From an uncultured Gemmatimonadaceae bacterium (GTDB lineage Bacteria > Gemmatimonadota > Gemmatimonadetes > Gemmatimonadales > Gemmatimonadaceae), in assembly GCA_963761305.1 (NCBI GenBank), contig CAVXGK010000001.1, positions 640,001 through 704,000 of the forward strand: a stretch of 64,000 nucleotides of DNA. Reading direction: 5' to 3'. Numbering within the stretch: position 1 is the stretch's first letter; each line of letters opens with the position of its first letter. Positions 1-61,601 of the stretch are shown here, piece by piece. Both the position numbers and the translations under genes were made by a program. The notes below the pieces were generated by a model. That model had not been told where the DNA came from. It saw only the letters and a list, made by a program, of their open reading frames with translations, and searched no databases.

Positions 1-26
1 CGACGCCAATTCGTCGATTCCAGATT

Positions 27-25316: not shown

Positions 25317-25334
25317 TGATGCTTGAGTGCAACA
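25317..25334. promoter_or_regulatory. Candidate enhancer (UAS) site for a sigma54 activator
   Basis: TGATGCTTGAGTGCAACA, a near-palindromic 18-mer 96 bp upstream of a -24/-12 element. Confidence 0.55.
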
Positions 25335-25430
25335 GTTAGCCCCCTCTCTCGCAATCTGCCGATACGCGGCCGAATCCATAAGGCATTGTATGGAACGAAC
25401 ATAGGCGACGTGACGAGCGGGCCCGGCCTG

Positions 25431-25446
25431 TGGCACGTCCGCTGCT
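25431..25446 (+). promoter_or_regulatory. sigma54 -24/-12 promoter of the STAS gene
   Basis: TGGCACGTCCGCTGCT, close to consensus TGGCACG-N4-TTGCW. Confidence 0.7.
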
Positions 25447-25506
25447 ATCCCCTCGTGGCTTCACAAGGCAATGCGCGACGGATGTCGGCGTCGGCGCGGA
25501 GGTCTC

Positions 25507-25812
25507 ATGGAAACGGCCCTTAGTAAGACGTTGATTCCCTGTACGATCGAGCTGCGTCACGAGATGGCGATGTCTGGCCCGCGTTCGGTGCGTACGTCGA
25601 TCATGACGGCGCTCGGCAAGGGTGATCGGCACGTCGTGGTGGATTGCTGCGGCTGGGAGCAGTTGGATTTGGTGGTCTTGAGCACCCTCGTGCAGGGCGC
25701 CAAGGCGTGTGCCGCGTTCGGAGCGTCGTTCGAGCTGGTGAACCTTGCTGGCCATGTCCATGATGACATCGTCGCGCTCCGTCTGGAACGCCGGCTAGGA
25801 CTGATCGCGTAG
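25507..25812 (+). CDS. STAS domain protein (anti-anti-sigma-like)
   Basis: VVVDCCGWEQLD..LSTLV..FELVNL..LRLERRL pattern; GGAGG RBS. Confidence 0.7.
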   Translation: METALSKTLIPCTIELRHEMAMSGPRSVRTSIMTALGKGDRHVVVDCCGWEQLDLVVLSTLVQGAKACAAFGASFELVNLAGHVHDDIVALRLERRLGLIA

Positions 25813-25816
25813 GTTG

Positions 25817-25857
25817 TGTTGCATGGGGACCACAGATACTGAGGATCGCCGGCAACA
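25817..25857. promoter_or_regulatory. Tandem candidate enhancer sites upstream of the PEP-CTERM gene
   Basis: TGTTGCATGGGGACCACA (25817-25834) and TGAGGATCGCCGGCAACA (25840-25857). Confidence 0.6.
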
Positions 25858-25954
25858 TTGGCATCAAATGTTTCAATTGAATTGGCGAGGGCGTTTTTTG
25901 CGTAAACTGCTTTGCAACAACGTTTTAGTACCATGTAAAGCTTGTTGGGAAGCG

Positions 25955-25970
25955 TGGTATGGCCCCTGCG
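25955..25970 (+). promoter_or_regulatory. sigma54 -24/-12 promoter of the PEP-CTERM gene
   Basis: TGGTATGGCCCCTGCG (GG-N10-GC), preceded by an AT-rich spacer. Confidence 0.62.
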
Positions 25971-26036
25971 ATAGCGGGCCCAAGGATTGAGCGCCGGTGG
26001 ACGCCGCGCTCTGAAGGCGAACCTGAGTCTGGAGGA

Positions 26037-26663
26037 ATGATGAGAGTGCGTAACCTCGCGTGTGCCGTGATGATCGGTACCGCGGCAGTTTCGTTGGCGT
26101 CGGCGCCAGCATCGGCACAGCTGGTCACATTTTCGACGTCAGGCGCGTTCAGCCAAGGGTCCTGTGGACCGTCTCTATGCGTCTTCGGTGGTTATGTGCT
26201 GACGTACGTTCCGGAATTCAACGTCCAGTGGCAACAGCCAAGCGACATCAGCCTGGGCGACTTCGCGGCCACCTGCTTCTCTGCCCCGTGCTCCGGCGGG
26301 AACATCCTCTCCGGCTCGACGTTCATGCTGACCATCAACGAGAGCGGCCCGACCCCTGGCTCCGCGTCGATTTCCGGTCTGCTAGGCTGGGACGCGTCCA
26401 CCAACACGCTGTCGTGGAACCCGAACACGAGTACCGTGACCATCGGGGGCACCACGTACACGCTGGACGAAGACAATACCGGCTGCGCGTTCCAGAACTC
26501 GCAGTGCGTCGACATTTCGACGCCCCACGTCAATGGGATTCCACTCTTCACGAACATCACAGATCCCGTCACCGCCACGCCCGAACCGGCGACGATCGCC
26601 CTCATGGCCACCGGCCTTGTCGGCCTGATTCCCGTCGCCCGGCGCCGTCGCAAGAACGCCTAG
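26037..26663 (+). CDS. PEP-CTERM sorting-domain surface protein
   Basis: Signal peptide (ASAQ); C-terminal TPEPATIALMATGLVGLIPVARRRRK; GGAGG RBS (start ATG 26037 or 26040). Confidence 0.9.
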   Translation: MMRVRNLACAVMIGTAAVSLASAPASAQLVTFSTSGAFSQGSCGPSLCVFGGYVLTYVPEFNVQWQQPSDISLGDFAATCFSAPCSGGNILSGSTFMLTINESGPTPGSASISGLLGWDASTNTLSWNPNTSTVTIGGTTYTLDEDNTGCAFQNSQCVDISTPHVNGIPLFTNITDPVTATPEPATIALMATGLVGLIPVARRRRKNA

Positions 26664-26712
26664 ACCTTACCTCGCTCCAGTTCACGGGCAGGTAACGGCG
26701 TCCACCGTAGAC

Positions 26713-26758
26713 ACCGCGGGAGTCGCTGCTCAAGCAGCGACTCCCGCGGTCTTTTTTT
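26713..26758 (+). terminator. Intrinsic terminator
   Basis: Perfect 17-bp stem ACCGCGGGAGTCGCTGC/GCAGCGACTCCCGCGGT followed by T7. Confidence 0.9.
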
Positions 26759-26834
26759 GCGTTTGCGGTTCTCTTGCGTCGAAAAGACGAGCCCGCTCCA
26801 CCGCCTCTCAACTCCACGACAAGGGTTTTTCTTC

Positions 26835-27371
26835 GTGCCTCAACTCTCGAACGAGTTCGTTCGCCGAATCCAGGTCCCTGTCTACCTCATTGTCGCGTAT
26901 CTGAGCATCGGGTCGATCATCGAGCTCCTGGTGGCCGGCTGGCCGCTCCATCTCCATGACGTGAATTTCCGGCTTGGATTGCTGAATTCCGCCGCCGCCG
27001 CCACAGGGACTGAGTTGCTCGCGCTGCTCCTTCTCGTGGTGATGGGTCAGCTCGCCATGTCGAGCGGGGCGCTTTGGGCCGGCTTCTGGTACTGCCTCCT
27101 CGTTGCGCTGGCGTACATCGCCGCCGCCGGCACCTTCGTGCTCGATGCCCTTCAGCTTCGCGGCCGGGTCCCCGCCGCCGAGGTGACGCGATTCGACGTC
27201 ACGATCGCGTGGGCGCTCGGGCGCTTCGCGGCCGCCGAGATCGTGTGCCTGTTCCTCGCGGCGTGCGCGATGTATGCCGCTCGCTCACTCCGGCGTGAGT
27301 CCCCGCGCGACAGCGCCAACAGGCTGGTGGTCGGCGTCCCCGGTGCCAGCACGACGCCCGTCCCGCACTGA
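26835..27371 (+). CDS. Four-TM hypothetical membrane protein
   Basis: Four hydrophobic segments; GTG start approximate. Confidence 0.7.
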   Translation: MPQLSNEFVRRIQVPVYLIVAYLSIGSIIELLVAGWPLHLHDVNFRLGLLNSAAAATGTELLALLLLVVMGQLAMSSGALWAGFWYCLLVALAYIAAAGTFVLDALQLRGRVPAAEVTRFDVTIAWALGRFAAAEIVCLFLAACAMYAARSLRRESPRDSANRLVVGVPGASTTPVPH

Positions 27372-27395
27372 CGCCACGCCGAAGCCAACGGCGCC

Positions 27396-28328
27396 TCAGG
27401 GCGCCAACGTCGGATCGTAGCTGGTGACGAACTCGATGAACTTCGAAACGTCCACCATGTCTCGCCCGACGAATCGCACCGTGTGCGAGTCGATGCGTTG
27501 TACGTTCGGCAAGTACCCGAGCAGCTCGACCGGACGATAGTTCTTGAACGACACGTCGAGCGTGATGGGATGAGTCATCGCGTAGGGCTTCATCTCTCCG
27601 CGCCGTTTGACCGCGGTCGCGGCGTGCTCGCGAATCAAACGTCGCGCCGTTTCCGGCGTCATCGTCCCCGTCGAGTGGAAGCCGATCGCCCGCTTCACCG
27701 CGACGCCCTCGATCGGGCCCAGTCGCGCCTTCGTCTCGGCCACGATCGCGTCGTCACCGGTCAGCATCACGACGGGAACACCGTACTGCGCGGCGATCGC
27801 GGCGTTGATTCCCGCCTCGGACATCGAGACCCCGTTCAGCGAGATGCGGGTCAGCAGCGCGCTCGAGATCGTGTGTGCACGCACGCCGGTGGTGCTCGAT
27901 GTCGAGGCGTGGTAGCCGATGAAAATCACCGCCGCGAACGTCGAATCGATCCCCTCCATCATGCCGAGTGGCCGAGGAAATGATCGGATGATGGTTACCG
28001 GAATGTCGGTCGGGAATCGATCGATCAAGAGCGATTCGCCGTTGCCATGCGAATCGCTCACCACGAACTCGGTGGCCCCCGCATCGCGAGCTCCCTGGAT
28101 CGCCGCCAGCACTTCACCAGTCATCCAGTCGCGCGCCCGCTCGTACTCGAAGTTTCCGGGCCCCAGCTGGTCCACCGACGCCACGCCCGTGATGCCTTCC
28201 ATGTCCGCCGAGATGTAGACCTTGAGCGGGGCGGTGGGTCGCTGCGCCTGCGCGGTGACCGCACTCGCGACCAAGGCAATCGCCACCAATCCAAACGCGG
28301 TGGGGCCGGCGTGTCGGGCGCGCCTCAC
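27396..28328 (-). CDS. dppA: M55 family D-aminopeptidase with signal peptide
   Basis: Motifs YISADMEG, DSHG, IGYHA, AHT, SEAGINA and GDD. GTG overlaps the upstream stop. Confidence 0.88.
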   Translation of the reverse strand: MRRARHAGPTAFGLVAIALVASAVTAQAQRPTAPLKVYISADMEGITGVASVDQLGPGNFEYERARDWMTGEVLAAIQGARDAGATEFVVSDSHGNGESLLIDRFPTDIPVTIIRSFPRPLGMMEGIDSTFAAVIFIGYHASTSSTTGVRAHTISSALLTRISLNGVSMSEAGINAAIAAQYGVPVVMLTGDDAIVAETKARLGPIEGVAVKRAIGFHSTGTMTPETARRLIREHAATAVKRRGEMKPYAMTHPITLDVSFKNYRPVELLGYLPNVQRIDSHTVRFVGRDMVDVSKFIEFVTSYDPTLAP

Positions 28329-29668
28329 TGGGCGACCTCCACGTTCGGCTCGTCGACTTCCTGCCACACTCGCCCCGGCCGCGTTTCAGGCAGCGCGAAG
28401 GTCCCGATCACGACCGTCAGCAGCGACACGCCGATCGGGAACCACAGACCGGCGAGCTTGTTCCCGGTCGCGGCGACGATCGACGTCGCGATCAGCGGCA
28501 TGAATCCGCCAAACCAGCCGTTTCCGAAATGGTAGGGGAGCGAGAGCGACGTATACCGGATTCTCGCCGGGAAGCTCTCGACGAGGAACGCCGCGATCGG
28601 TCCGTAGACCATCGTCACGTAGAACACCTGCACGAACACGAGGAACACCAGCATCGGCACATTGAGCGGCTGCGCCGCCGAGATCATCGCCTTGTAGATC
28701 GGGATGTACGTCAACGCGGCGACGAGGCACCCGGCCATGATGATTCTCTTGCGGCCGATGCGGTCCGAGAGCGAACCGAAAACGACGAAGAACGGCGTCG
28801 CCAACACGAGCGCGATCGCCACGATGATGTACGCCGTGTCGATCGGAATCTTGAGAATCGTCTGCAGGAAGATGAGCGCGTAGAACTGGCCGGTGTACCA
28901 CACGACCGCTTGTCCCGCCGTGGCGCCGAACAGCACGAGCAGGAAGAAGCGCCAGCGCTCGAGCGTCCCATAGCTGTCGGCGATCGGCGCCGTGGACGTC
29001 TTCCCGGCCGCCTTGAGCTGCGCGAACACCGGCGACTCGGCCATACGCGCACGGATGTAGTACGAGACGATCACCAGCATCGACGACAGCAGGAACGGAA
29101 TCCGCCAGCCCCACGCCTTGAAATCCGCATCGCTCATCGAGTGCTTCGTCACGAGAATCACGATCAGCGACACAAAAAATCCGAGCGTCGCCGTCGTCTG
29201 GATGAACGACGTGTAGTAGCCGCGCTTGTCGTCCGGCGAGTGTTCGGCGACGTAGATCGCCGCGCCGCCGTATTCACCGCCGAGGGCCAGCCCCTGAAGC
29301 AGGCGAAGCGTCACCAGCAGAATCGGCGCGAAGATTCCGAGCGTCCCGTAGCCCGGGAGCAGACCGATCGCGGCCGTCGCGCCGCCCATGATGAGCAATG
29401 TCATCATGAACGCGTACTTCCGTCCAACGAGGTCCCCGATGCGGCCGAACACCAAGGCACCGAACGGGCGCACGGCGAAGCCCGCGGCGAACGTCGCGAG
29501 CCACTTCAGCAGCGAGACCGTCGCATTCGCCTCGGGATAGAAAACCGCCGAGAGCACCGCCGCGAGACTGCCGAAGATGTAGAAGTCGTACCACTCGATG
29601 ACCGTGCCGGCCGACGACGCGGCGATCACGCCCCAAATCCCGCGCGTCTGTGCGTTGGATGTTGTCAT
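28325..29668 (-). CDS. MFS metabolite:H+ symporter (MHS family)
   Basis: Motifs GTVIEWYDFYIFG, GDLVGRK, GGEYGGA and WGWRIPFL. Confidence 0.92.
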   Translation of the reverse strand: MTTSNAQTRGIWGVIAASSAGTVIEWYDFYIFGSLAAVLSAVFYPEANATVSLLKWLATFAAGFAVRPFGALVFGRIGDLVGRKYAFMMTLLIMGGATAAIGLLPGYGTLGIFAPILLVTLRLLQGLALGGEYGGAAIYVAEHSPDDKRGYYTSFIQTTATLGFFVSLIVILVTKHSMSDADFKAWGWRIPFLLSSMLVIVSYYIRARMAESPVFAQLKAAGKTSTAPIADSYGTLERWRFFLLVLFGATAGQAVVWYTGQFYALIFLQTILKIPIDTAYIIVAIALVLATPFFVVFGSLSDRIGRKRIIMAGCLVAALTYIPIYKAMISAAQPLNVPMLVFLVFVQVFYVTMVYGPIAAFLVESFPARIRYTSLSLPYHFGNGWFGGFMPLIATSIVAATGNKLAGLWFPIGVSLLTVVIGTFALPETRPGRVWQEVDEPNVEVAQ

Positions 29669-29723
29669 GCGCACAATACTGCGTTCTGTGAGCCGCTTTG
29701 ACGAGAGCGGCCGCCCGCCAGGT

Positions 29724-30662
29724 TCAGGGCTCGAACGCCTTGTCGGTGGACATCGCCAGCCACGCCCGTGCCGTTCGCTCGGTCGGCAGCCACGATGTCG
29801 GGTACGCCGGCAGCGCGCCCGCGTTCGCCGCACGAACGGAATTCGTATGCGCGTCGCCGACGAACCCCGACGCCTCGGCGAGCGGGCGAAGTCCCTCCTC
29901 TCCCATTCGCAGCGGAATCACGTCGTCGAAGAACATGATCGACAGGTCGCGAGAGCGCCCCACGATGTGCGCGGCGTTCGGCTCGGGCGCGAGCGCCCAG
30001 AGCGCGCCGCCGCGACGATTCAAATCGAACAAGCCCGTGATCGTGTTCACGCGCGATTCGAGATCCTTGCCGCCGATGAACAGCAGCGCGGGAATCGCTC
30101 GCGTCGCGCGAGGCGTGAGCGCGGTGTAGTAGATGCCGCCCTTGTTGACGACGAACGCGAGCACGCGCTCCGGCTTCCACGCCGCGAACTCGTAGTTGAA
30201 CTGTCCGCCGGCCGACATGCCCCAGAACAACAACGGCTCGCTCGTGAGCTCGGGGTGTTTCGAGCGTTCGGCGAGGTGCCCGAGCGCGTCGAGCAGCGCC
30301 TGGCCGCTACCGCGCGAGACGTTCACGTAGTCTTCGAGGAAATTCTGGTCGTGCGGCTTGTCGGTGAACCGGCAGGCGAGCAAGGCCAATCGCTGTTTCG
30401 TCGCGAAGGCCTGCCACACGGAATCCTCGGCCATGGCGCGGCCGTCGCCGTTCGAGCCCGGCACCAGCACCATCGTGCCTCGAAGCGTGGCCACCCCTGG
30501 CGGCGCCCAAAAACGGAATTGAGCCTTGTCGAAGTTCGCTCCGGGAGGGATCGTGTCCTCGAGCGTGGAAGTGCTCGGCGCTTGGGCCTCGATGGCGCGA
30601 TTCGCGGCGGAGAAAACGAGGAAGCCGGCGGCAAGCGCGCCAAATCTGCGGAGTCGAGTCAT
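29724..30662 (-). CDS. Secreted alpha/beta-hydrolase-like protein
   Basis: Signal peptide; nucleophile elbow WGMSAGG; candidate Asp (GGKD) and His (AAH). Confidence 0.65.
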   Translation of the reverse strand: MTRLRRFGALAAGFLVFSAANRAIEAQAPSTSTLEDTIPPGANFDKAQFRFWAPPGVATLRGTMVLVPGSNGDGRAMAEDSVWQAFATKQRLALLACRFTDKPHDQNFLEDYVNVSRGSGQALLDALGHLAERSKHPELTSEPLLFWGMSAGGQFNYEFAAWKPERVLAFVVNKGGIYYTALTPRATRAIPALLFIGGKDLESRVNTITGLFDLNRRGGALWALAPEPNAAHIVGRSRDLSIMFFDDVIPLRMGEEGLRPLAEASGFVGDAHTNSVRAANAGALPAYPTSWLPTERTARAWLAMSTDKAFEP

Positions 30663-30744
30663 CGGGATTGTCAGCGGAAGAGGGCGATCGGTAATTGTCA
30701 GTGGCGCGCGCGGCGCGCGCCAGAGGCACAGAGGAGAATAGAGC

Positions 30745-31656: not shown

Positions 31657-31743
31657 TCGCATCGGGCCCCGCGCACATCGGCGCTTGCTCCCCGGTCAGG
31701 CGCCGGCAGATTACGGTCGACGTTACACCAGGACGGAGGCGCG

Positions 31744-33341: not shown

Positions 33342-33350
33342 GCGGGTCGC

Positions 33351-35014: not shown

Positions 35015-35048
35015 GGCGCTCTAATTGAATGGTTCGAGGGTTGGCGCG

Positions 35049-36131: not shown

Positions 36132-36237
36132 AGCTCGGTGAAACCTATCGCGGGAACGGCCACCGAAGTTTCAATCAAGCAACGAGGCGGTAGACCAGTA
36201 GTGGCCTGCCGCCTCGCAGTCGACCGTGGAGAAACGC

Positions 36238-39030: not shown

Positions 39031-39032
39031 TG

Positions 39033-47946: not shown

Positions 47947-49005
47947 CTACGCCTGGGGCAACTCGAGGCGGAACGAGAACCGCGTGCCCTCTTCGACCGC
48001 CGTGTCGACGAGCAGCGAGCTACCCATCTTCTCGAGCAGGTTGCGGCAGATGGCGAGCCCGAGTCCCGCGCTCGAGAAGCGCATGCCGACCGAGCCCGGT
48101 CGGAATCCGTCGAACAGCATCGCCAGGACATTGTCCGGAATGCCGCGGCCGGTGTCCTCGATCCAGAATTCCACCATGGTCGGCGAGTGCTCGGTGCAGC
48201 CGACCGATACCGAACCGTGCTCGGTGTAGCGCAGCGCGTTCGTGGACAAGTTCAACAGCACGCGGCTCAGCGCGGACGGATAGCCCTGCCGGCCGTCGAC
48301 CTGCGGGAACGTCGTGTTGAGCACGAGGTTCTTCTCTTCGGCGAGCGGGCGAACGATGGCACACACGCCGAGCAGAACTTCGGTGATCGAGAACGGCGTC
48401 CGCCGACCGTCGACCAGGCGATCGCCGTTGATGGCGTCCACGACGTCGGACGCGAGCGTGCTGAGGCCGAGCGCGGCGCCGTAGACGAGACCGAGCTGAC
48501 GCTCCTGCACCTGCGTCACCGTACCGCTCTGACCGCGGCGAATCGTGTCCACGAGGAAGAGGATCGAACCCAGCGGCGAGCGCATGTCGTGCGCCATTTC
48601 GACCACGGCGCGGAGCGCGTCCGGGCTCGACAGCCGCTCGGTGAATTCGTTGGCCACCGGCGGCGCTTGCCTGGACGCGAGCTCTTCGAGCGCCGAGAGA
48701 ACGCGCGCCAGGTCACGACCGTCGATCGGCGCCGTTTCAGCAGCAGCGCGCTGGAGAACCCGCGCGCGGAATGCGTTGATGTGATCGCGGCTCAGGCCCG
48801 AGACGAGGATCGACATGCCGTTGCCGGATTCGGTGCTGAGGCGCGCCGCGAGCTCGCGCAGCCGCAGGCGCAGCTCCGCCAACGCGGTGTCCGGCATCGG
48901 GCCAAGCTCCTCGACGGCGGCTTCGGCCGCGTTGGCGAGGAGCCAACGCAGCGGCGCAGCATCGACGCGGCCGCTGGCTTCCGGTCTGGAAACCGCCGCG
49001 CTCAA
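47947..49005 (-). CDS. Cytoplasmic sensor histidine kinase
   Basis: H-box AHDMRSPL, N-box NLSTNALRY, DTGRGI and GLGL; no TM segment. Start uncertain. Confidence 0.88.
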   Translation of the reverse strand: MSAAVSRPEASGRVDAAPLRWLLANAAEAAVEELGPMPDTALAELRLRLRELAARLSTESGNGMSILVSGLSRDHINAFRARVLQRAAAETAPIDGRDLARVLSALEELASRQAPPVANEFTERLSSPDALRAVVEMAHDMRSPLGSILFLVDTIRRGQSGTVTQVQERQLGLVYGAALGLSTLASDVVDAINGDRLVDGRRTPFSITEVLLGVCAIVRPLAEEKNLVLNTTFPQVDGRQGYPSALSRVLLNLSTNALRYTEHGSVSVGCTEHSPTMVEFWIEDTGRGIPDNVLAMLFDGFRPGSVGMRFSSAGLGLAICRNLLEKMGSSLLVDTAVEEGTRFSFRLELPQA

Positions 49006-49086: not shown

Positions 49087-50661
49087 TCAAGTCTGCGACG
49101 AGTTCATGCCATCACGGCGGAACCCGTGCCGCTCGAGCAGCCGATACAGCGTCGTGCGATCGACATTCGCGAGCCGCGCCGCTCGCGACATGTTGCCTGC
49201 AGCGCGCGCCACCAACCTAGTCACGTACTCCTTCTCGAACGTGGCCAGCACCTGTTCCTTCGCCGTGTGGTACGCGTCGTTGTGCAACGCGGTCATGTTC
49301 ATCGTTTCAGCGGGCTGAGTCCAATCCTGGTGGACGGGGATCTCGCCTGGCTGGATTTCCGAACCCGGCTGGGCCAGCACGACCACGTGCTCGATGACGT
49401 TCTGAAGCTCGCGAACATTCCCGCGCCACGGCCGCGACATGAGGAAGTCGAACGCCGCGTCGCCGAAGTGAGGGGGTTCGTCCTTCGCCGGATGATGGCG
49501 CACCCAAAAACGTTCCAGGAAGAACGTCGCGAGAATGGGAACGTCCTCGACACGATCGCGTAACGGCGGAAGCGTGATCGGGAAGACGTTGAGCCGGAAG
49601 TACAGGTCCTCGCGCAGATGGCGGCTGCGAATCGCTTCGCCCGGATCGCGGTTCGTCGCCGAGATGAAACGGACGTCGACGACCGCATCCTGCTGTTCGC
49701 TGCCCACGCGGCGCAGCACACCGTCCTGCACGACGCGCAACAGCTTCGCCTGCAACGGCACAGTCATCTCGGTCAGCTCGTCGAGGAAGAACGTGCCGCC
49801 GTTCGCCATCTCGAGCAGTCCGATCTTGTCGCGATCGGCGCCCGTGAACGCGCCCTTGCGGTGGCCGAACATCTCGGACTCGAGGAGATGTTCCGGTAGC
49901 GCCGCGCAGTTGAGCGGCACGAGGGGTTGCGCCGCGCGGTTGCTGTGCCGGTGCACGAACTGCGCGATCATTTCCTTCCCCGTTCCGCTTTCGCCGACGA
50001 GCATGACCGACGCATTGGTCGTCGCGACCTTGCGCGCGAGATCGACCACGCGGCGAAACGCCGACGACGTGCCGAGCAGTGTGAGCTTGTCGCTGTTCCC
50101 ATTGCGCTTCCGCGACTCGACCTGCGTCGATTCACGGTCGCGGGTCGCGAGCACCGCGTGCGCCGCTCGGCCGAGCAGCACCTGCAGGTGCGTTCCGGAA
50201 AACGGCTTCGGCAGGTAGTCCCACGCGCCGCTGCGAAGCGCCTCCATGCTCGAGGCGACGCTCGGATTGCCCGTCATCACCAGCACGATGGTGCCGGGAC
50301 GAATCGTGAGAACGGCTTTGAGGATCTCCAGGCCGGGAACCGGCGTCATGTAGAGATCCACCATCACAATGTCGTAGTGCGCGCGCCGAACCATGTCGAG
50401 CGCTTCGTCGCCACGACCGCACGTGGTGACGCTGTAGCCTTCCACCTGGAGGACGCTCGCGCAGCCCTCGCGAAGCGTCCGGTCGTCGTCGACGATCAGG
50501 ATGCGGATGGTGCCGCGGTCCTCGACGGAGATACCGGCTCCGTCCGCCAACCCTGGTTGTTCCTCCGAGTTCACGATGGGCATTTCAGACTCGACGGCAG
50601 CAGGCGCCGAGGACGGCGTAGAAGGCAAGTACACGTTGAAGTCGCTGTACTTCGTCTTCAT
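49087..50661 (-). CDS. sigma54-dependent response regulator (REC-AAA+-Fis HTH, NtrC family)
   Basis: REC (IVDDD, DLYM, KPF); GESGTGKE; ESEMFGH..GAFTGA; LDE; WRGNVREL; HTH NMSRAARLANVDRTTLYR. Confidence 0.95.
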   Translation of the reverse strand: MKTKYSDFNVYLPSTPSSAPAAVESEMPIVNSEEQPGLADGAGISVEDRGTIRILIVDDDRTLREGCASVLQVEGYSVTTCGRGDEALDMVRRAHYDIVMVDLYMTPVPGLEILKAVLTIRPGTIVLVMTGNPSVASSMEALRSGAWDYLPKPFSGTHLQVLLGRAAHAVLATRDRESTQVESRKRNGNSDKLTLLGTSSAFRRVVDLARKVATTNASVMLVGESGTGKEMIAQFVHRHSNRAAQPLVPLNCAALPEHLLESEMFGHRKGAFTGADRDKIGLLEMANGGTFFLDELTEMTVPLQAKLLRVVQDGVLRRVGSEQQDAVVDVRFISATNRDPGEAIRSRHLREDLYFRLNVFPITLPPLRDRVEDVPILATFFLERFWVRHHPAKDEPPHFGDAAFDFLMSRPWRGNVRELQNVIEHVVVLAQPGSEIQPGEIPVHQDWTQPAETMNMTALHNDAYHTAKEQVLATFEKEYVTRLVARAAGNMSRAARLANVDRTTLYRLLERHGFRRDGMNSSQT

Positions 50662-50677
50662 CGGGGAGGCCGAATGC

Positions 50678-50695
50678 TGTGGAGACTGCGCAACA
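50678..50695. promoter_or_regulatory. Candidate activator-binding site just upstream of the activator's own start
   Basis: TGTGGAGACTGCGCAACA (reverse complement TGTTGCGCAGTCTCCACA); weaker copy at 50871-50888. Confidence 0.55.
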
Positions 50696-50950
50696 GGATT
50701 GGTGCATGAGTGACGCGGCTCACAAAATGGCGTTGATGGATCCCCTGTCAAGCCTTGACAGAGTATCGGCCCGCATGGCGCGATGATACACCGACATGGG
50801 CCAAGTTGTCCTATCGCCAACAACGTGCATGCCACACCCCAAGCGGACACCCGTCGGCACGTGTCGGTTGCGTAGCGCTTGCGCCACACCGAGCCGCGTA
50901 ACCGACCGGGCTGTTGTCGGTTCCGCGGCTGGCAGCCTTCAAAAGCTATT

Positions 50951-51913
50951 TTATACGGTTATTCGATCGTAATTCAAAGGCGCTCGGTCAAGAACCGGCG
51001 TCCGTACATGGTCGAGGGCGACCTCGGCCCGGCGAAGGAGCTCGGTCGGCTCCAATCCCGCCGCGGACAGGTCGGCGATGGCGCAGTAGCCGGCACTCAA
51101 CGAGGCGACATGGCGGCCCGCACCGATGTTCCCGGTTCGCTCCAGGCTCGCGGACAAGCGGTTCACGAACTGCTCGGCACCGCCGGCGTCGGTGTCGGGC
51201 GCCAAAATGGCGAGCCGCGAACTGCCGAGGTACCCCAACACGTCCGACCGGCGACTCTGCTCCCGGCAGACGTCCAGGATCTGCAGCAACGCGTCGTGGC
51301 CGACGATCTCGCGCGTGATCTCCTCACTCGCGTACTCGCCGCTGGACCAGACCCGCATCTCGCCGCCCGGGTTCGGCCGGACCGCGACGCACGCCAGCGG
51401 CTCGTGGTTCCGAATGGCCCGCGCGCCGAGATGTCGTACCCACTGCTCGAGACCATGGCTGCTATACACCCCCGTGGCCGCGTCGAGCAGTCCGCCGCCG
51501 CGCGCATCCCGCACGGAATCCGCCGCGCGGACGAACGTCGCAAGCTTGAGCATCAGCGTTTCGACATCGAACGGCTGGCTGCAATACTCCCACGCGCCCG
51601 CCGCGAACGCCGCCGTGCCGGCGCGATACCCGCCGGCCACGGAGCTGGTCACGATGATCGGCGTCGAATGATCGAATAGCGGGTCGTCCCGCAGGGCCCG
51701 GCAGACCTCGACGCCGCCCATGTCGGTCGTAGCCGCATCGAGGAACAGCGCGTCGAGGGGCGTGCGTCGCGCGAGCTCCAAGGCCCGCCGACCGCGTTCG
51801 ACGCGCACGACGCTGTAACCGTTCAACTCGAGAACGCTCTCGAGCGAACGACCAGCCCATTCGCCGTCACTGGCGATCAACACCAGGCGTCCGCGCTTCT
51901 GTGGCTCGGCCAT
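50951..51913 (-). CDS. Atypical REC + degenerate GGDEF protein
   Basis: REC-like N-terminus; LLDAATGVYS linker; RRSD I-site; GGDEF replaced by GSSRL. Confidence 0.8.
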   Translation of the reverse strand: MAEPQKRGRLVLIASDGEWAGRSLESVLELNGYSVVRVERGRRALELARRTPLDALFLDAATTDMGGVEVCRALRDDPLFDHSTPIIVTSSVAGGYRAGTAAFAAGAWEYCSQPFDVETLMLKLATFVRAADSVRDARGGGLLDAATGVYSSHGLEQWVRHLGARAIRNHEPLACVAVRPNPGGEMRVWSSGEYASEEITREIVGHDALLQILDVCREQSRRSDVLGYLGSSRLAILAPDTDAGGAEQFVNRLSASLERTGNIGAGRHVASLSAGYCAIADLSAAGLEPTELLRRAEVALDHVRTPVLDRAPLNYDRITV

Positions 51914-52148
51914 TTGGGTTCTTGAACGTTCGGAGTCTGACCGCGAAATCGAATGCTGGGTGCATCGTTTCGTTACAGCGCTCGTCGTCCGCCATCGCTC
52001 CCCAACGTCCGAAGAGCGAATCAAAATGATGAAGCCGCTAGCAATCGTCACCGCCAAAACATGGTTCCAGCGCGCGAATCAGTAGCAGCCTCTTCAATGA
52101 ACCCGAGTCATCCGAGCCCAGTGTGGCCGTCGAGCGGCCACGCGAAAA

Positions 52149-52164
52149 GGCATCTTCCGTTCCG
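52149..52164 (-). promoter_or_regulatory. Candidate sigma54 -24/-12 promoter of the REC-GGDEF gene
   Basis: Minus strand CGGAACGGAAGATGCC (GG-N10-GC), 94 bp from motif TGTCGCGGCGGCGCGTCA (52259-52276). Confidence 0.45.
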
Positions 52165-52317
52165 GCATAGAATTGCCGGGGTTGTCGCTTAACCGATTCA
52201 TTACTAACAGTTTGGCCTGCGGCAAGCAAGCAGACCACCGACCCTCACCGGATCGAACTGTCGCGGCGGCGCGTCAATAGTGTCGTTTCCGGCCGCCAAG
52301 TAACCGGTCAGCGCACG

Positions 52318-55476: not shown

Positions 55477-55551
55477 GAGACCTCTAGAAATTAGAAGCTG
55501 TCGAAGGCGGCCATTCAGACGGGCGACGCCGCCGGGCCCCGACCAGATGGA

Positions 55552-57591
55552 CTACGGCGTGACTCCCAGGATGACGAAGCGCGGAATGCTCCGCGTCGCC
55601 ACCGTCTTATCACCCAACTCGCCGGCCAAGTTGTCCCCCCAACACGCGAGCGATCCATCCGTCGTGAGACCGCAGGAGTGCGCGACCCCCGTGAAGATGG
55701 ACTTGAACTTGAGTCCGCCGACGACCGGCGTCGGGTCGGTACGACTGACGTTCGTGCTGTCGCCGAGCTGGCCGAACTGGTTGTTCCCCCAGCAATACGC
55801 CGACCCATCGCCCGTCAGCGCGCACGCGTGCCCGCTGCCGACCGCCAACGACACGAAAACCGGGGCACCGACGTACTGGTGCGGAACCGCGACCGCGCCG
55901 ATTCCCTGCACCGCGCCCCAGCAGTATGCCTGTCCGCTGGTCGTCAGCCCGCACGTCCACGGATCTCCGCCGCCGATGGCCTGGAAAGACAGACCGCCGG
56001 CGACGAGCGTCGGCGCCACGCGGTTGATCCCCGTGCCGTCTCCGAGCTGCCCGAATTGGTTCGATCCCCAGCACAGCGCGTCGTGCGACACCGTGAGCGC
56101 ACACGCGTGGTTCAGACCCGCGGCAATGGTGGAGAACTTGAAGCCGCCGAACACCGCCGTCGGAGCGAATCGCGAGGTTGTGTCGCCGCGCGTCCCGAGC
56201 TGACCGAGCTGGTTCGATCCCCAGCAGTACGCGTCCTGAGTCGTCGTGATCGCGCAGGTGTGCGAAGCACCGGGGGCGACCTGCGCCCACGCGAGCGCGC
56301 TGGGAAGCTGCGTCGGCACGGTCGCGAGCCCGGCGTTCTTGCCGGTCGTGTCGACGAGCGCGTTGATGCCCCAACACGAGATCGTATTGCCGGTCGCGAC
56401 GCCGCAGAAGTGCGTGGAGCTTCCGGCGATCGACTGCAGGGAAACGGCCGCTCCAACCTGGGTCGGGGTCGACTTGTTGACCGTGTCGCCGCCGCCGATC
56501 TGCGGCTCCTGGCCCATGCAACTCGGCACGCCGCCGGCGTCGAGACCGCACGTCGAGAAACCGCCGAGCGCCACGTGCACGGGAGTGTAGTGGATCGCCG
56601 TCCCCGTGCTGGTCGCCTGAAGCTTGAGCGTTCCACTTTCGACACGCGCTATGAGATTTTGAACGCCAGAGATGTCACCAAGCGTCCAGGTCCCGGGCGA
56701 AGCGACGCCGTCGGCTCCAGTGGACACCGTTGGAAACGGCACCCTGCCGCCACCCGTCGCCGAGAACGTGATCGGCACGCCGGCCCGCGGTTTTCCGAGG
56801 GAATCGACGAGTTTCACGGACGGCGCAATCGGGAGGTCGGAAAGGATCTGACCCGTTTGATGGTCGCCGGCTATCGCGGCGAGCGCTGCGTAGGACGTCA
56901 CTCCGAACGACACCGGGTTGCCGCCGACGAACGCGAGAGGCTGATTCGTCGTGTCGACGACCGCCGCCGTGATCGAGTTGAAGTTCGGGTTCGCGCCGAG
57001 CGTCCATTGTGTCGCCGCCAATCCGTTGGAGCTCGACGTCGTCACGGTCTGCGAAACCGAACCACCGCCGCCCGTCACCGCGAACAACACACGCGCCCCG
57101 CCAACCGGCGCGCCGGACTTGTTCGTGACGAACACGCGAATCGAGTCGGAGACGATCGCCCCCGGCGTCGCCGCGTTGGGCGGCGTCCAGGCGAACCGCG
57201 CGATGGTGGCGGCGCCGTTCCAAACCACGACGACCGTCACCGGCTTCGAGGTAAATCCGAGCGTCGAAGCAGTGACGACCGTCGCTCCGGTATCGACAGC
57301 CGTCAAGACGCCCTTGGAGTCAAAGGTCGCGGCGTTGTCGTTGCTGCTCTGCCAGACCACCGGCACGCTGATCGCGCGATCGAGTTGATCGTTCACGACG
57401 GCGGAGAACTGTTGTCGAGTCCCACGCTCGAGTGTCGCCGAAGGCGGGTCGATCGTGATCGAACCGACTTTCTGCACCTGCGTCAACGTGCCGTCGCTGC
57501 TGCACGAGAGGCACGCCAGCGCGCACACGATTGTGGCGCCAAGCGCGATGAGCGAACCAACCCCTTTTTCGCGTGTTCTACCCGGCTGCAA
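55552..57591 (-). CDS. Ig-like (Big) + RCC1-repeat lipoprotein
   Basis: Lipobox LSC; VVWQSSN Ig domain; repeated HxC.L..G.AYCWGxNxxGQLG. Start uncertain. Confidence 0.88.
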   Translation of the reverse strand: MQPGRTREKGVGSLIALGATIVCALACLSCSSDGTLTQVQKVGSITIDPPSATLERGTRQQFSAVVNDQLDRAISVPVVWQSSNDNAATFDSKGVLTAVDTGATVVTASTLGFTSKPVTVVVVWNGAATIARFAWTPPNAATPGAIVSDSIRVFVTNKSGAPVGGARVLFAVTGGGGSVSQTVTTSSSNGLAATQWTLGANPNFNSITAAVVDTTNQPLAFVGGNPVSFGVTSYAALAAIAGDHQTGQILSDLPIAPSVKLVDSLGKPRAGVPITFSATGGGRVPFPTVSTGADGVASPGTWTLGDISGVQNLIARVESGTLKLQATSTGTAIHYTPVHVALGGFSTCGLDAGGVPSCMGQEPQIGGGDTVNKSTPTQVGAAVSLQSIAGSSTHFCGVATGNTISCWGINALVDTTGKNAGLATVPTQLPSALAWAQVAPGASHTCAITTTQDAYCWGSNQLGQLGTRGDTTSRFAPTAVFGGFKFSTIAAGLNHACALTVSHDALCWGSNQFGQLGDGTGINRVAPTLVAGGLSFQAIGGGDPWTCGLTTSGQAYCWGAVQGIGAVAVPHQYVGAPVFVSLAVGSGHACALTGDGSAYCWGNNQFGQLGDSTNVSRTDPTPVVGGLKFKSIFTGVAHSCGLTTDGSLACWGDNLAGELGDKTVATRSIPRFVILGVTP

Positions 57592-57799
57592 GCGGCGTTT
57601 CCGTTTCGGAGATGTTGGTGAGGCTCGGCTGGGACGCGGCGAGTTACGTGATTATCACTGCAAAGGGACGATCGACGCACAGCGTGGCGACATCACGAGG
57701 GCAGCACGCGAGAAATCTGCCGTTCTGGCCGAACAGTATTGCGCCGCCCAATAACCGGCAACTTGCGATTTCGTTAAGCTCGCTAACCGAACCTTGACC

Positions 57800-57838
57800 T
57801 GTTGCGCGTATCCCGTGACCCGTTGCCGGGTTGCAACA
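57800..57838. promoter_or_regulatory. Tandem candidate enhancer sites upstream of wza-wzc
   Basis: TGTTGCGCGTATCCCGTG (57800-57817) and CGTTGCCGGGTTGCAACA (57821-57838). Confidence 0.55.
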
Positions 57839-57930
57839 ACACTCGTCCGGACACATACTTGCCCTCTCCGCTAAACCACGCTAGCCGGGGTCGCGCCGTC
57901 CCGTGCTTCGGGATCGTCTCAATCCGACGG

Positions 57931-57946
57931 TGGTACGGTGAGTGCT
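57931..57946 (+). promoter_or_regulatory. sigma54 -24/-12 promoter of the EPS export genes
   Basis: TGGTACGGTGAGTGCT (GG-N10-GC). Confidence 0.62.
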
Positions 57947-58030
57947 AGTCCTCAGGGACCGCAAAACGTTGCACGGTCTAACCGCCGGAGAGGGCCGAAA
58001 CCCACCGATGCATCCAAACAACGCGACTTC

Positions 58031-58807
58031 ATGTCCTGCCATCCAGCAATGCTAAGGGTTGTCGTCGGAACGACTGTCGGCCTGTTAGCGCTCGGCAATC
58101 CTTGCCGAGCGCAGGACGGCGCTGCGAATCCGCCGACCCGGCGGGAGTTCGAAAGTCGCGCGGAACTCGAGGCTCAGGCGAAGACGGCGGAGGCCCAACA
58201 TCGAACCGGCGAAGCTTGGCTGCTTCGCCAGCGGTTAGAAAAAGGCGACTTCCAGGACGGCGATCGCATTGTCATCGTGATGCAAGGCAACGCGTTGATG
58301 CCAAAGGATTTCACAGGTATTCCGGACACGAACATCGTTCGCGCGGGGCGCCGACTCCAGTTCCAGCGGATGGCAGACCTCAGCCTGGACGGCGTGCTTC
58401 GCTCGGAGCTCAACGACAAGTTGACCGAGTATTTCTCGGTTTATTTCAGATCGCCCTCGGTAAGGAGCACACCCCTCCTGCGGATTGCGGTGCTCGGCAC
58501 CGTGGGTAAGCCGGGGTATGTCTATACCCTTGCCGACGCCCCCCTGAGTGATCTCATCATGCAGGCGGGAGGACCAGGCAGCAGCGCGAACATGGCCGGA
58601 ATTGAGATTCGACGAGGCGCCGATGTGATCTGGAACGATCAGGACACCCGCGCCGCGTTGGCCGACGGCATGTCTCTCGACCGTTTACATCTGCGCGCCG
58701 GGGACGAGGTCTTCATTCCGGCGCAGCGAGACATATCGTGGCTGGCTGTTATTTCGGTAGCGGTCTCGACTGCCGCATTTCTGATTACGATTTTGCACTT
58801 CAGGTAA
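58031..58807 (+). CDS. Polysaccharide export protein (Wza/SLBB-domain)
   Basis: Motifs FQDGDRI, IAVLGTVGKPG, LIMQAGG and LRAGDEVFIP; C-terminal amphipathic helix. Confidence 0.8.
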   Translation: MSCHPAMLRVVVGTTVGLLALGNPCRAQDGAANPPTRREFESRAELEAQAKTAEAQHRTGEAWLLRQRLEKGDFQDGDRIVIVMQGNALMPKDFTGIPDTNIVRAGRRLQFQRMADLSLDGVLRSELNDKLTEYFSVYFRSPSVRSTPLLRIAVLGTVGKPGYVYTLADAPLSDLIMQAGGPGSSANMAGIEIRRGADVIWNDQDTRAALADGMSLDRLHLRAGDEVFIPAQRDISWLAVISVAVSTAAFLITILHFR

Positions 58808-58842
58808 ATAATCTTTCCGACGGGGTCGATCCTTAGTTTCCG

Positions 58843-61254
58843 ATGACTCGCCGCCTTTCCGATAATTCCATGTCCGACGAAGCCGCCCCACTGCAACTCG
58901 TTCACTCGCCGGAATCGACCGCGATCGAGCTGTCGGATCACGCGCCGTCGCTGTCGGCTTTGCCAAGTCAGCCGTTTGAACGCGCGCGCGGCGCGCTCCG
59001 GCGATACAAGTGGCTGATGTTGGTGGTGGTCGTGTTGGCGGTTGGAGGCGGCTTTGCCGCGACGCGGTTCGTGAAGCCGCTGTACGACGTCAGCGCGACA
59101 ATCTTGATTCAGTCCGAGACGCCGATGTCGAGGAACGGCGGCGCGTTCAAGGCCGAAGAGCTTTTGAGCTCCGGCGCGTGGGTCGATCTCCTCAAGAGCC
59201 CGCGGGTCGCCGACGCCGTGGTGAAGAACCTGGGACTCTATGTCCGACCCGACAACCCAGGCGATTCGACGGCGATGCGCGGATTCGCCATCGCCGAGCG
59301 TTTTGCCAAGGGCCGGTACCAATTGGCTATCGATCGCGATCGGAAGACGTGGCGGCTTCAGCTGGCCTCAGGCAATGCCGTCGACAGCGGCACGGTCAGC
59401 GACTCGGTCGGAAGGGCTCTCGGCTTCAAGTGGCTCCTTCCCGCCGTCCTGTTCGACGGATCCGGCACGAAGAAGGTGCCGTTCACGGTATCGACGCCGC
59501 GCGAGACGGCGCTGGACTACATTGGCCGCCTCAGCGCGACGCTGCCCGACCGCGGCACGTTCATGACGCTTACGATGCGCGACGACGATCCGCAGTTGAG
59601 CGCGCGGACGATGAACGCATGGATGCATGAATACGTCGACGTCGCGGAGCAGCTCAAAAAGCAGAACGTCGTCGAGTACTCGGCGATCCTGTCCGGACAG
59701 TTGGCGACCGCCGAGAAGAGCCTGCACGACGCCGAGAACGCGCTCGAAGCGTTTCGGGTCCAGACGATCACCATCACGCCCCCCGCCGGGGCCCTCCAGC
59801 CCGGTGTCGCCGAGACGACCGACCCGGCAATCAAGAACTACTTCACACGGAAATTCGAGTACGACGATCTCAAACACGACCGCGAGGCGCTCGAGAGGAT
59901 TCTCTCGAATCCGTCGGACAGCGTGTCCGTCGAGGCGGCGCTGCTGATTCCAAGCGTGAGCCAGAGCCCGAGTGCCGGGGCGCTTCGCGACGCGTTCAAT
60001 GATCTGAACAAATCTCAGGCGGCACTCGCGACGGCACGGCAGGCCTACACGGACGAATACGCCACCGTCAAGGATCTCAAGGCCAACATCGAACAGATTC
60101 AGACGCAAACAATTCCGCGTCTGGCGCAGGCGCTGTTGACCCAGCTCAGGGACCGCGAAGGGCAGTTCCAGCAGCGCATCAGCGGCGAATCGCAAGAGCT
60201 GCAGAAAATCCCGGAGCGCACGATCGAGGAAATGCGGCTCAGCCGCCAGGTGGCTGTCCAGGAACAGGTATACAACACGGTCAAGACGACGTACACGCAA
60301 GCGCAAATGTCCGAGGCGAGCACGACACCCGACGTCCGGATTCTGGACACGGCCATCGCCCCGTTGTATCCGTCGAAGAACACGAAGCCGCGCCTGATGG
60401 CGATGGCGCTGCTGGCCGGCATTGGCGGTGCGATCGCCCTCGCGCTCTTGCTCGACACCTTCGATCGCCGCATTCGCTATCCGGAACAGGTGACGAATGA
60501 GCTCGGGCTCAACATCGCCGCGGCGATTCCGAAGTTCCCGCGGGGAACGGTGAACACGCGCTCGCCGGAGCAGATCGCACATCTCGTCGAGGCTTTCCGC
60601 TCGCTCCGAATGCACGTCCGGCACGCCGGCCTCACTCCTATCACACTCGCCATCTCCAGCCCCCAACCTGGCGACGGGAAATCGTTCGTGTCGGCGAACC
60701 TCGCGATGTCGTTCGCGGACGCCGGCTACCGGACGATTCTCGTCGACGGCGATACGCGGCGAGGCATGGCGCACGAAGTATTCGGCTTGTCGATGGACAA
60801 CGGACTCACTGACTACCTGTCAGGGTCGGCCGACGTCTCGCAGATCATCAGGCCGACCGCGCACGAACGTCTCGCCTTCGCACCGTGCGGCCGGCGGCGA
60901 CCCAACAGCCCGGAACTGCTCACCTCGTCGGCGCTACCGAGGCTCGTGGCCGAGCTTCGAAATCGGTACGACGTCGTGTTGTTCGACACGCCGCCGCTGA
61001 ACGCAGGCATCGATGCCTACGCCATCAGCTCGGCCGTCGCCAACATGGTTGTGGTCCTTCGTGCAGGCAAAACCGAACGGCGCCTCGCCGCCGCGAAACT
61101 CTTGCTGGCTGACCGGCTGCCGATCAACATCCTCGGCGCGGTACTCAACGCGGTGCAGCTCGACGGCGAATTCCAGTACTATGGCTACGCGTCCGGTTAC
61201 GACTACACGGATGATGAATCGACGTCGGATTCCACGTCACTCCAAAAAACATGA
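58843..61254 (+). CDS. wzc: Polysaccharide co-polymerase / tyrosine autokinase
   Basis: Two TM segments with coiled coil; EAFRSLR; Walker A PGDGKS; VDGD; FDTPP; Tyr cluster QYYGYASGYDY. Confidence 0.92.
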   Translation: MTRRLSDNSMSDEAAPLQLVHSPESTAIELSDHAPSLSALPSQPFERARGALRRYKWLMLVVVVLAVGGGFAATRFVKPLYDVSATILIQSETPMSRNGGAFKAEELLSSGAWVDLLKSPRVADAVVKNLGLYVRPDNPGDSTAMRGFAIAERFAKGRYQLAIDRDRKTWRLQLASGNAVDSGTVSDSVGRALGFKWLLPAVLFDGSGTKKVPFTVSTPRETALDYIGRLSATLPDRGTFMTLTMRDDDPQLSARTMNAWMHEYVDVAEQLKKQNVVEYSAILSGQLATAEKSLHDAENALEAFRVQTITITPPAGALQPGVAETTDPAIKNYFTRKFEYDDLKHDREALERILSNPSDSVSVEAALLIPSVSQSPSAGALRDAFNDLNKSQAALATARQAYTDEYATVKDLKANIEQIQTQTIPRLAQALLTQLRDREGQFQQRISGESQELQKIPERTIEEMRLSRQVAVQEQVYNTVKTTYTQAQMSEASTTPDVRILDTAIAPLYPSKNTKPRLMAMALLAGIGGAIALALLLDTFDRRIRYPEQVTNELGLNIAAAIPKFPRGTVNTRSPEQIAHLVEAFRSLRMHVRHAGLTPITLAISSPQPGDGKSFVSANLAMSFADAGYRTILVDGDTRRGMAHEVFGLSMDNGLTDYLSGSADVSQIIRPTAHERLAFAPCGRRRPNSPELLTSSALPRLVAELRNRYDVVLFDTPPLNAGIDAYAISSAVANMVVVLRAGKTERRLAAAKLLLADRLPINILGAVLNAVQLDGEFQYYGYASGYDYTDDESTSDSTSLQKT

Positions 61255-61363
61255 CGAGCGCCGCGGGCGAAACGAGCTCGTTGGCCCACGTTGTGAATCA
61301 GATGCAGGACCCTGGTGGTCCTGCATTTTTTTGTGGCTTGGCAGGCGAACTTGCGTACGCTTT

Positions 61364-61401
61364 TGTTGCAGCAAAACAAAACCTGTGGGACGGTCGCAAC
61401 A
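61364..61401. promoter_or_regulatory. Tandem candidate enhancer sites upstream of the priming glycosyltransferase
   Basis: TGTTGCAGCAAAACAAAA (61364-61381) and TGTGGGACGGTCGCAACA (61384-61401). A degenerate -24/-12 element GAGCACGCAGGGTGCA lies at 61497-61512. Confidence 0.5.
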
Positions 61402-61601
61402 CGTTCCGTCACTCGACGAAGCATGGTAGGCGCGTCTGTTTTAGCTAAACTACTATGCGTTATTGACTTACGATTGTTGACGCCGTGACGACGCGCGAGC
61501 ACGCAGGGTGCATGAGGTTCCTGGACCGTTGCCCTTGACGAAGGAGTCGGGGGGGTTTGACTTCTTGTTCTCAGACGATCGTCTGGAGGGATTTTCCCCC
61601 C

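Follow-up and report, generated by a model that had tools for sequence, protein, structure and literature searches.

The DNA analysed here is a stretch of 64,000 nucleotides (C1:640001-704000, hereafter the window) from the genome of an uncultured Gemmatimonadaceae bacterium (assembly GCA_963761305.1, contig CAVXGK010000001.1). The genome (G000, with contigs C1 and C2) has a size of 5.2 Mb and is 93% complete. In the window, genes for extracellular polysaccharide (EPS) export and priming, a PEP-CTERM surface protein, a STAS protein and a predicted receptor of cyclic di-GMP (c-di-GMP) are preceded by an 18 bp enhancer-like motif (upstream activating sequence, UAS) and by -24/-12 promoter elements. 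The first-pass annotation had proposed a sigma54 enhancer regulon joining these genes, and both the placement and the conservation of the motif support it. In our view this sigma54 regulon for surface polysaccharide and PEP-CTERM proteins of the Gemmatimonadia is real and well supported, and it appears not to have been described before. Gene calling used a purpose-made codon model, and annotation was by Pfam and NCBIfam. The genes concerned are:

25507-25812, plus strand: single-domain STAS protein, 101 aa (Pfam STAS)
26037-26663, plus strand, start at 26037 or 26040: PEP-CTERM surface protein (PF07589 and TIGR02595 over cut-off)
47947-48897, minus strand: soluble histidine kinase, 316 aa, with a helical N-terminal domain and an invariant H103
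49087-50661, minus strand: NtrC-family sigma54 activator, 524 aa, with receiver (REC), AAA+ and helix-turn-helix (HTH) domains (domain models, GAFTGA/GSFTGA, HTH signature)
50951-51913, minus strand: atypical receiver joined to a degenerate GGDEF domain (REC-GGDEF protein), RxxD I-site R221-D224, predicted c-di-GMP receptor
58031-58807, plus strand, start at 58031 or 58049: Wza-like polysaccharide export protein with SLBB domains
58843-61254, plus strand: Wzc-type chain-length protein/tyrosine kinase (Pfam/NCBIfam)
61602-62432, plus strand: WcaJ-type priming glycosyltransferase (PF02397)

The window also encodes a SusC-like receptor, an RCC1 protein and a low-molecular-weight phosphatase, and glycosyltransferase-like genes run on for about 50 kb beyond its end (as judged from gene calls and N-terminal sequences, not from Pfam). 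Scanning the window with Rfam gave no match. The genome has one RpoN, which is canonical and carries the RpoN box, and 11 sigma54 activators including the one at 49087-50661, whose nearest named relatives are metagenome-assembled genomes of Gemmatimonadaceae/Gemmatimonadales. A single soil RNA run, represented by its contigs only, had 6% of words in common and gave no start-site information.

The 18 bp motif and the genes behind it

Ten 18-mers had been reported at first pass under the pattern TGTTGC-N6-(GCAACA|NCCACA). All ten were found where they had been placed, but the literal pattern fits only three of them (25817, 50678 and 61384). The perfect palindrome TGTTGC-N6-GCAACA occurs nowhere in the genome; the actual consensus is looser, YGTDG-N8-CHACR. 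Because circularity had to be avoided, an independent UAS matrix was trained on relatives only (176 sites from 72 activator-upstream regions, seed TGT.G-N8-C.ACA). With this matrix nine of the ten window sites score 10.6-16.9 bits, and the tenth, at 57800, scores 0.1. The sites, and the five -24/-12-like elements that go with them, are as follows:

25317-25334: UAS of the STAS gene, 16.9 bits, kept in close relatives
25431-25446, plus strand: canonical -24/-12 element TGGCAC-N6-TGC, 96 bp from the UAS, predicted +1 at 25457, conserved
25817-25834 and 25840-25857: paired UAS, 15.0 and 10.6 bits, conserved
25955-25970, plus strand: canonical -24/-12 element, 97 bp from the nearer UAS, predicted +1 at 25981, conserved
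50678-50695: UAS in the activator's own leader, 14.4 bits, conserved across three families
50871-50888: second UAS 5' of the activator gene, 13.3 bits, conserved within the genus
52149-52164, minus strand: -24/-12 element CGGAAC-N6-TGC, 94 bp from the UAS, predicted +1 at 52138, 10.5 bits
52259-52276: UAS for the REC-GGDEF gene, 10.6 bits, conserved
57800-57838: decayed half-site (57800, 0.1 bits) and good UAS (57821-57838, 13.3 bits) of wza-wzc
57931-57946, plus strand: canonical -24/-12 element, 92 bp from the UAS, predicted +1 at 57957, conserved
61364-61381 and 61384-61401: paired UAS for wcaJ, 11.4 and 12.3 bits, conserved
61497-61512, plus strand: non-canonical -24/-12 element with AG for GG, 95 bp from the UAS, predicted +1 at 61523

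The intergenic DNA of the window (6,149 bp) contains 11 sites above 10.5 bits, against a mean of 0.68 and a maximum of 4 in 300 shuffles. Enhancer-promoter pairs separated by 90-99 bp number four in this intergenic DNA, where shuffling gives a mean of 0.007, and two in the remaining 704 kb; a fifth window pair, with the AG promoter of 5.9 bits, falls narrowly under the cut of 6 used for the count. The expected co-occurrence near 95 bp was thus borne out within the window, but the genome outside it showed no spacing peak near that value. In close relatives the spacers of the STAS, PEP-CTERM, wza and wcaJ promoters have diverged, but the UAS and -24/-12 elements stand out in them as conserved islands. 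At the REC-GGDEF promoter the islands, including the core of the 52149 element, are retained in three close relatives and not in L034. The positions of 57800 and 57821 both hold good sites in relatives. When upstream regions of relatives were de-duplicated and submitted to de novo expectation maximization, the motif came out on top for the activator (61 sequences) and for wza (29), and for the REC-GGDEF set the top motif was a promoter-like element, cCGCA.GagtccTgc.

That the motif arose by chance, or is what remains of the end of a mobile repeat, is very improbable. High-scoring 18-mers are indeed carried by an element of about 730 bp that is present in 5-6 copies in the genome, but the regulatory regions are absent from the BLAST matches of this repeat, and the shuffle tests, the conservation in diverged spacers and the de novo recovery across families all argue against chance.

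The repeat itself is intergenic by gene calls and raises the motif counts. Its copies (window 1-580, C1:639870-640580; C2:655493-656216, 2439917-2440665, 235210-235521, 1335625-1336192 and 589208-589261) are 68-81% identical, with enhancer-like 18-mers about 420 bp apart. It may be a mobile element of the non-autonomous type, a structured RNA or a gene missed by the gene calls.

The activator cluster is co-conserved yet rearranged, with several gene orders among 80 loci. Within 10 kb of the activator the kinase gene was found at 71 loci, the REC-GGDEF gene at 65, wzc and wcaJ at 42 each and wza at 35. Upstream sites above 12 bits were counted with a window-trained matrix at 76 of the 80 loci (three near-identical relatives and one duplicate were dropped). 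Such sites precede the activator in 37/72 cases, wza in 24/31, the REC-GGDEF gene in 36/57, wcaJ in 14/42 and wzc in 9/37, where shuffles gave about one. The operon-internal kinase gene had a site in 1/67 cases, SusC in 0/10, the 63208-type gene in 0/15 and RCC1, whose upstream region is common with that of wza, in 6/10.

PEP-CTERM genes away from the cluster were studied in 59 non-syntenic upstream regions of at least 270 bp from 23 genomes (68 genes parsed). The motif is present in 19 regions of 12 genomes (shuffled mean 1.7, maximum 6), and 12 of these 19 also hold a downstream -24/-12 element. Membership of the STAS gene is narrow: of 151 genomes from the order, two have a homologue. The same arrangement of UAS and promoter is seen in further families of the class (G092, G198, G175 and G128).

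In the genome under study most of the regulon lies in two places, the EPS island and the locus of the PEP-CTERM and STAS genes. The clearest additional canonical pair, with a gap of 74 bp, lies at C1:745380, near the far end of the island. Strong sites were also seen on C2. Duplicated promoter regions at 2551575 and 2552807 (L197), with UAS of 18.3 and 16.9 bits, precede two glycosyltransferase-like genes of a second polysaccharide locus. A 17.5-bit site at C2:21591 (L199) lies between a glycosyltransferase-like gene and a Flp/Tad-pilus-like cluster (judged from N-terminal sequences), and could widen the regulon to adhesion pili.

Spacing and sequence of the promoters

All five -24/-12-like elements reported at first pass, including the one with AG, were found in place, and the gaps of 96, 97, 94, 92 and 95 bp are correct (94 follows from coordinates 52259 and 52164). 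The idea of a fixed distance did not survive comparison with relatives, whose gaps span about 60-190 bp with a mode near 94. Among 109 enhancer-promoter pairs from 174 loci of relatives, 19 have gaps of 92-99 bp and 54 of 60-125 bp; PEP-CTERM pairs (n = 12) range from 67 to 192 bp, and in other families of the class gaps are 59-119 bp. This spread rules out 92-97 bp as a general rule. The value of about 95 bp is a mode common to the five promoters of this genome and no law.

Helical phasing at 10.5 bp was not established by the 109 pairs (Rayleigh R = 0.14; R = 0.07 for distinct values). A post hoc set of 13 PEP-CTERM gaps gave a peak at 10.5 bp with R = 0.56 and p of about 0.017. Sites resembling the consensus of integration host factor (IHF) at 7/9 positions or better were found at 34/109 UAS-linked promoters, 12/67 other sigma54 promoters and 28/417 unlinked elements. 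Two lie in spacers of the window, both tentative:

25915-25927, plus strand: IHF-like site, 7/9 matches
52190-52202, minus strand: IHF-like site, 8/9 matches, conserved

We treat IHF sites in the spacers as a lead only. Just one HU/IHF-family gene (C2:821294-821578) was found in this 93% complete genome, which is unusual in an organism rich in sigma54 elements.

A sigma54 matrix built from 63 elements of the genome lying outside the region scores the window promoters at 25431, 25955, 52149, 57931 and 61497 at 12.5, 11.5, 10.5, 11.5 and 5.9 bits, respectively. GG-N10-GC is present in four of them, the fifth (61497) having AG, which is retained in five close relatives. Genome-wide, upstream elements of the GG type number 71 against 17 and 17 in spacing controls, and those of the AG type 15 against 12 and 21, so that only the GG class is in excess. 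These elements point to a large canonical sigma54 regulon with the consensus YGGCAY-N6-TGC, many members of which precede genes for small secreted or stress-type proteins.

Near the UAS the picture is different. Elements 55-125 bp from a UAS were counted for 914 oriented sites from 194 loci, a set that leaves out the genome's own loci and most near-identical and pattern-selected ones but retains six close-relative PEP-CTERM loci. With G as first base, the sigma54 spacer of 6 was seen 39 times and spacers of 4, 5, 7 and 8 were seen 6, 4, 4 and 2 times. The corresponding numbers are 22 against 2, 2, 2 and 2 for A, 16 against 4, 9, 6 and 4 for C, and 10 against 2, 4, 5 and 5 for T. The sigma54 spacing is thus enriched beside the UAS for all four bases at -25. 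When the first G is present and the second is missing, there is no enrichment near the UAS (8 against 7 and 9). Beside the UAS, then, A, C or T frequently stands in place of the first -24 G, whereas the second G and the spacing are required. Orthologous promoters alternate accordingly: that of wcaJ has GG in G067, CG in G038, G092 and G032, TG in G198 and AG in the genome under study, and that of wza has GG in this genome and AG in many relatives. This alternation at orthologous positions argues for one promoter class.

The absence of the first G from 48 of the 87 elements near a UAS, the lack of a genome-wide excess for any class but GG and the palindrome-like logo of the AG class (TAGCACg...gGTGCA) would also fit another explanation. 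The downstream elements, especially the AG, CG and TG forms, might be pseudo-palindromic GCAC-N5-GTGC sites of a second protein, with transcription driven by sigma70 as at the biofilm promoters of VpsR and FleQ. We consider this improbable, since GAFTGA or GSFTGA is intact in all 80 activators, GG and non-GG forms exchange at the same wcaJ and wza positions, and the elements require both the second G and precisely the spacing of sigma54 promoters. Moreover, single-base departures in GG or GC have been reported for characterised sigma54 promoters of Myxococcus xanthus (PMC7910581). A conserved, regulon-wide departure was not found described in the literature searched. Standard sigma54 scans would overlook the conserved promoters without GG, and these promoters can serve as a natural test of the importance of the first -24 G.

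The activator as the probable binding protein

The activator has the features of the NtrC type, i.e. a receiver, an AAA+ domain with GAFTGA and a Fis-type HTH. GAFTGA or GSFTGA is present in 80/80 orthologues and the HTH signature in 77/80. Its C-terminal region was detected in 92 of 161 sampled genomes of the phylum (a tally that includes one unpublished genome, G196), mainly in two families of the order (21/33 and 64/78). In a plasmid collection just generic activators with less than 60% identity were found. The adjacent kinase has an invariant H103 and intact ATP-binding motifs, and a fold search of the part following the N-terminal domain matched the kinase fold. The N-terminus is soluble and all-helical; its resemblance to RsbRD_N is weak (0.78) and is a lead only. 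This pair, with intact activator motifs and the kinase kept at 71 of 80 loci, most likely controls the regulon, as had been suggested at first pass.

From the sequence evidence, the 18 bp motif is probably the binding site of the adjoining activator, which would switch the surface polysaccharide, PEP-CTERM, STAS and receptor genes through sigma54 promoters. A strict palindromic form of the motif has 63 matches in 20 activator-bearing genomes (0.80/Mb) and 22 in 20 genomes without the activator (0.35/Mb; Mann-Whitney p = 0.006, a value overstated because the genomes share kinship). The reversed control pattern gave 118 and 95 matches, respectively. Strict matches cluster near the activator, as do all five in G089 and all four in G119.

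The motif could instead be the target of another factor, be it a further sigma54 activator (the genome has ten besides this one) or a regulator of unrelated type, with the adjoining activator being just a member of the regulon. This is unlikely, though not negligible. In its favour, sites are present in the activator leader of relatives and a strict -24/-12 element is found there in only 3/72 cases, strict matches persist in genomes without the activator, and in G003 a strong UAS with a -24/-12 element stands before a PEP-CTERM gene although the activator was not detected. On the other hand, the G003 assembly is fragmented (93% complete, 410 contigs), the motif is denser in activator-bearing genomes and clustered around the activator, and the HTH is near-invariant wherever the motif is retained (77/80). 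The paralogous activators have no strong upstream sites: one of the ten exceeds 10.5 bits (10.8), compared with 14.4 for the activator studied here.

Besides G003 and the 22 strict matches in activator-less genomes, several further observations weigh against the adjoining activator acting through this motif. Relatives are not independent, and p-values are overstated. Per-gene upstream counts overlap, because divergent gene pairs share upstream DNA, and 40 of the 59 PEP-CTERM regions are without the motif. UAS clusters of G110, G145 and G136 have no -24/-12 element by the pattern used, and the strong sites at C2:2551575 and 2552807 have no standard one. The motif is more frequent than in shuffled DNA within the window, as had been anticipated, but genome-wide and at lower thresholds intergenic DNA is not richer in it than coding DNA. 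With a strict composite pattern, 61 genomes yielded 12 matches, none of them in the genome under study, against 27 for the reversed control; several of the matches nonetheless sit on contigs with the activator or a PEP-CTERM gene.

If the adjoining activator does bind the motif, the following mechanism can be envisaged. The soluble kinase encoded behind the activator would phosphorylate it, and activator dimers would bind single sites or pairs 20-23 bp apart. The phosphorylated protein would oligomerise and loop to the sigma54 polymerase about 60-190 bp downstream (about 95 bp here), opening the promoters of the polysaccharide export and priming, PEP-CTERM, STAS and predicted c-di-GMP receptor genes. 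Promoters lacking the first -24 G would bind sigma54 weakly and hence depend more on activation. The sites at 50678 and 50871 have no -24/-12 partner, and an autoregulatory role suits them better. In relatives, a strict sigma70-like pattern lies 5' of the proximal site in 5/72 activator leaders. Leader sites, mostly devoid of -24/-12 elements, would give autoregulation of the activator, which is probably negative. The REC-GGDEF protein may add a c-di-GMP feedback arm, most plausibly onto the polysaccharide machinery or the kinase.

Duplicated activator clusters were seen in G092 (L226), G089 (L235), G037, G039, G041 and G059. Those of G092 each have their own enhancer sites, and G089 holds three copies of the REC-GGDEF gene.

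Relation to known systems and c-di-GMP

A close counterpart is PrsK/PrsR/PrsT (PMC1569441; for Aquincola pepA, PMC9850573), which likewise has an NtrC-like activator with an adjoining kinase beside EPS genes, an enhancer and a -24/-12 element before PEP-CTERM genes, and an exosortase. The genome under study has three PEP-CTERM genes and a single exosortase (C1:118944-119696), 570 kb away, which together constitute a PEP-CTERM/exosortase system; of 23 exosortase-bearing genomes, 7 have the exosortase gene no more than 10 kb from a copy of the activator. The first-pass annotation had pointed to this likeness. The general kind is indeed the same, but membership was not borne out, since three family models fail and the box differs. 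For PrsR (TIGR02915, cut-off 502.6) the activator scores 366.9, below five paralogues, and the best protein of the genome 406. For PrsK (TIGR02916, cut-off 300) the best score is 95.6, with 34.4 for the adjoining kinase, and for PrsT (TIGR02917, cut-off 312.2) it is 128.4 in this 93% complete genome. According to Haft (2006), the PEP-CTERM box is a 17-nt motif ending in TTTACA with a spacer of 62.8 +/- 10.6 nt, reported from Proteobacteria only (PMC1569441). Compared with the box as given in published text, the motif here is of 18 nt, YGTDG-N8-CHACR, with a mode near 94, and TTTACA/TGTAAA was found in just 3/59 PEP-CTERM upstream regions of relatives. Unlike PrsK, the kinase has no membrane sensor, and the constant targets are EPS export genes rather than PEP-CTERM genes. 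PrsK/PrsR identity was therefore rejected. Whether the differences amount to a matrix switch specific to the Gemmatimonadia lineage and convergent with PrsKR, with its own enhancer, a cytoplasmic kinase, a deliberately relaxed first -24 G (conserved AG, CG or TG) and feedback from a dedicated, catalytically dead REC-GGDEF receptor that the activator induces, is somewhat doubtful, and we put this forward only tentatively.

The syp system of Vibrio fischeri likewise combines a sigma54 activator, SypG, encoded within a polysaccharide locus, with several promoters that depend on an enhancer and with a gene for a single-domain STAS protein, but its UAS is TTCTCANNNTGMDWN and SypG is driven by a membrane phosphorelay (PMC10162802). 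EpsI/Nla24 of M. xanthus is an NtrC-like regulator needed for EPS and linked to c-di-GMP; there EpsI itself binds c-di-GMP (PMC4877007), whereas here the predicted site is on the separate, co-regulated REC-GGDEF protein. After Walker A the activator has EMIAQ. FleQ-type c-di-GMP receptors have ExxxR at this place, unlike the activator. The syp system is not known to have a PEP-CTERM arm.

The predicted fold of the REC-GGDEF protein is like that of DgcR, WspR and PleD, and its RxxD aligns with the I-site of PleD. In the 144 of 150 representatives that cover these columns, RxxD is always retained and GG(D/E)EF always lost, the combination expected of a degenerate-GGDEF receptor; PopA and PelD are receptors of this kind. 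The receiver keeps D59 but its conserved lysine is replaced (TKP in PleD, SQP here). By analogy with the established biochemistry of GGDEF domains, the protein is predicted to be a c-di-GMP receptor. Prediction of a complex between the kinase dimer and the REC-GGDEF protein scored 0.30, short of the mark of 0.32.

The first-pass suggestion that the system may be uncharacterised in this lineage appears to hold. No published description of a Gemmatimonadota sigma54/RpoN EPS or PEP-CTERM regulon, or of the motif halves, was found in the literature searched, though supplementary regulon tables could list such sites. The available part of a paper on gemmatimonad PEP-CTERM proteins gives no promoter analysis (PMC11406998), and that of PMC12316311 does not mention Gemmatimonadota. 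Haft (2006) expected that more regulators and motifs await discovery (PMC1569441). The regulon supplies a PEP-CTERM-linked regulator and motif outside Proteobacteria, in a phylum that is widespread but has had hardly any of its transcriptional regulation described, and whose members are abundant but little-studied soil bacteria. The named activator, its kinase, the binding matrix and five predicted start sites form a directly testable set, and the family of co-regulated RxxD proteins is a candidate for a new c-di-GMP effector in the control of Wzx/Wzy-type polysaccharides.

Some further genes deserve mention. At 26835-27371 (plus strand), 3' of the PEP-CTERM gene, lies a gene for a 178-aa membrane protein that falls into large unnamed Gemmatimonadota clusters, one of which has 24% HpsJ members (score 0.92). 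A homologue sits in the activator cluster of G047, and the protein is possibly a component of the matrix system. Two 1340-aa genes inside the EPS island (C1:715745-724101; L194, L195) have N-termini resembling condensation modules of nonribosomal peptide synthetases (judged from N-terminal sequences), and a phosphopantetheinyl-transferase-like gene is present there as well. At C2:1912436-1912805 (L200) two tandem genes, with a 12.3-bit site upstream, encode proteins of 54-55 aa that are nearly just a signal peptide and a PEP-CTERM tail; comparable mini-proteins are present in G003, G004 and G025.

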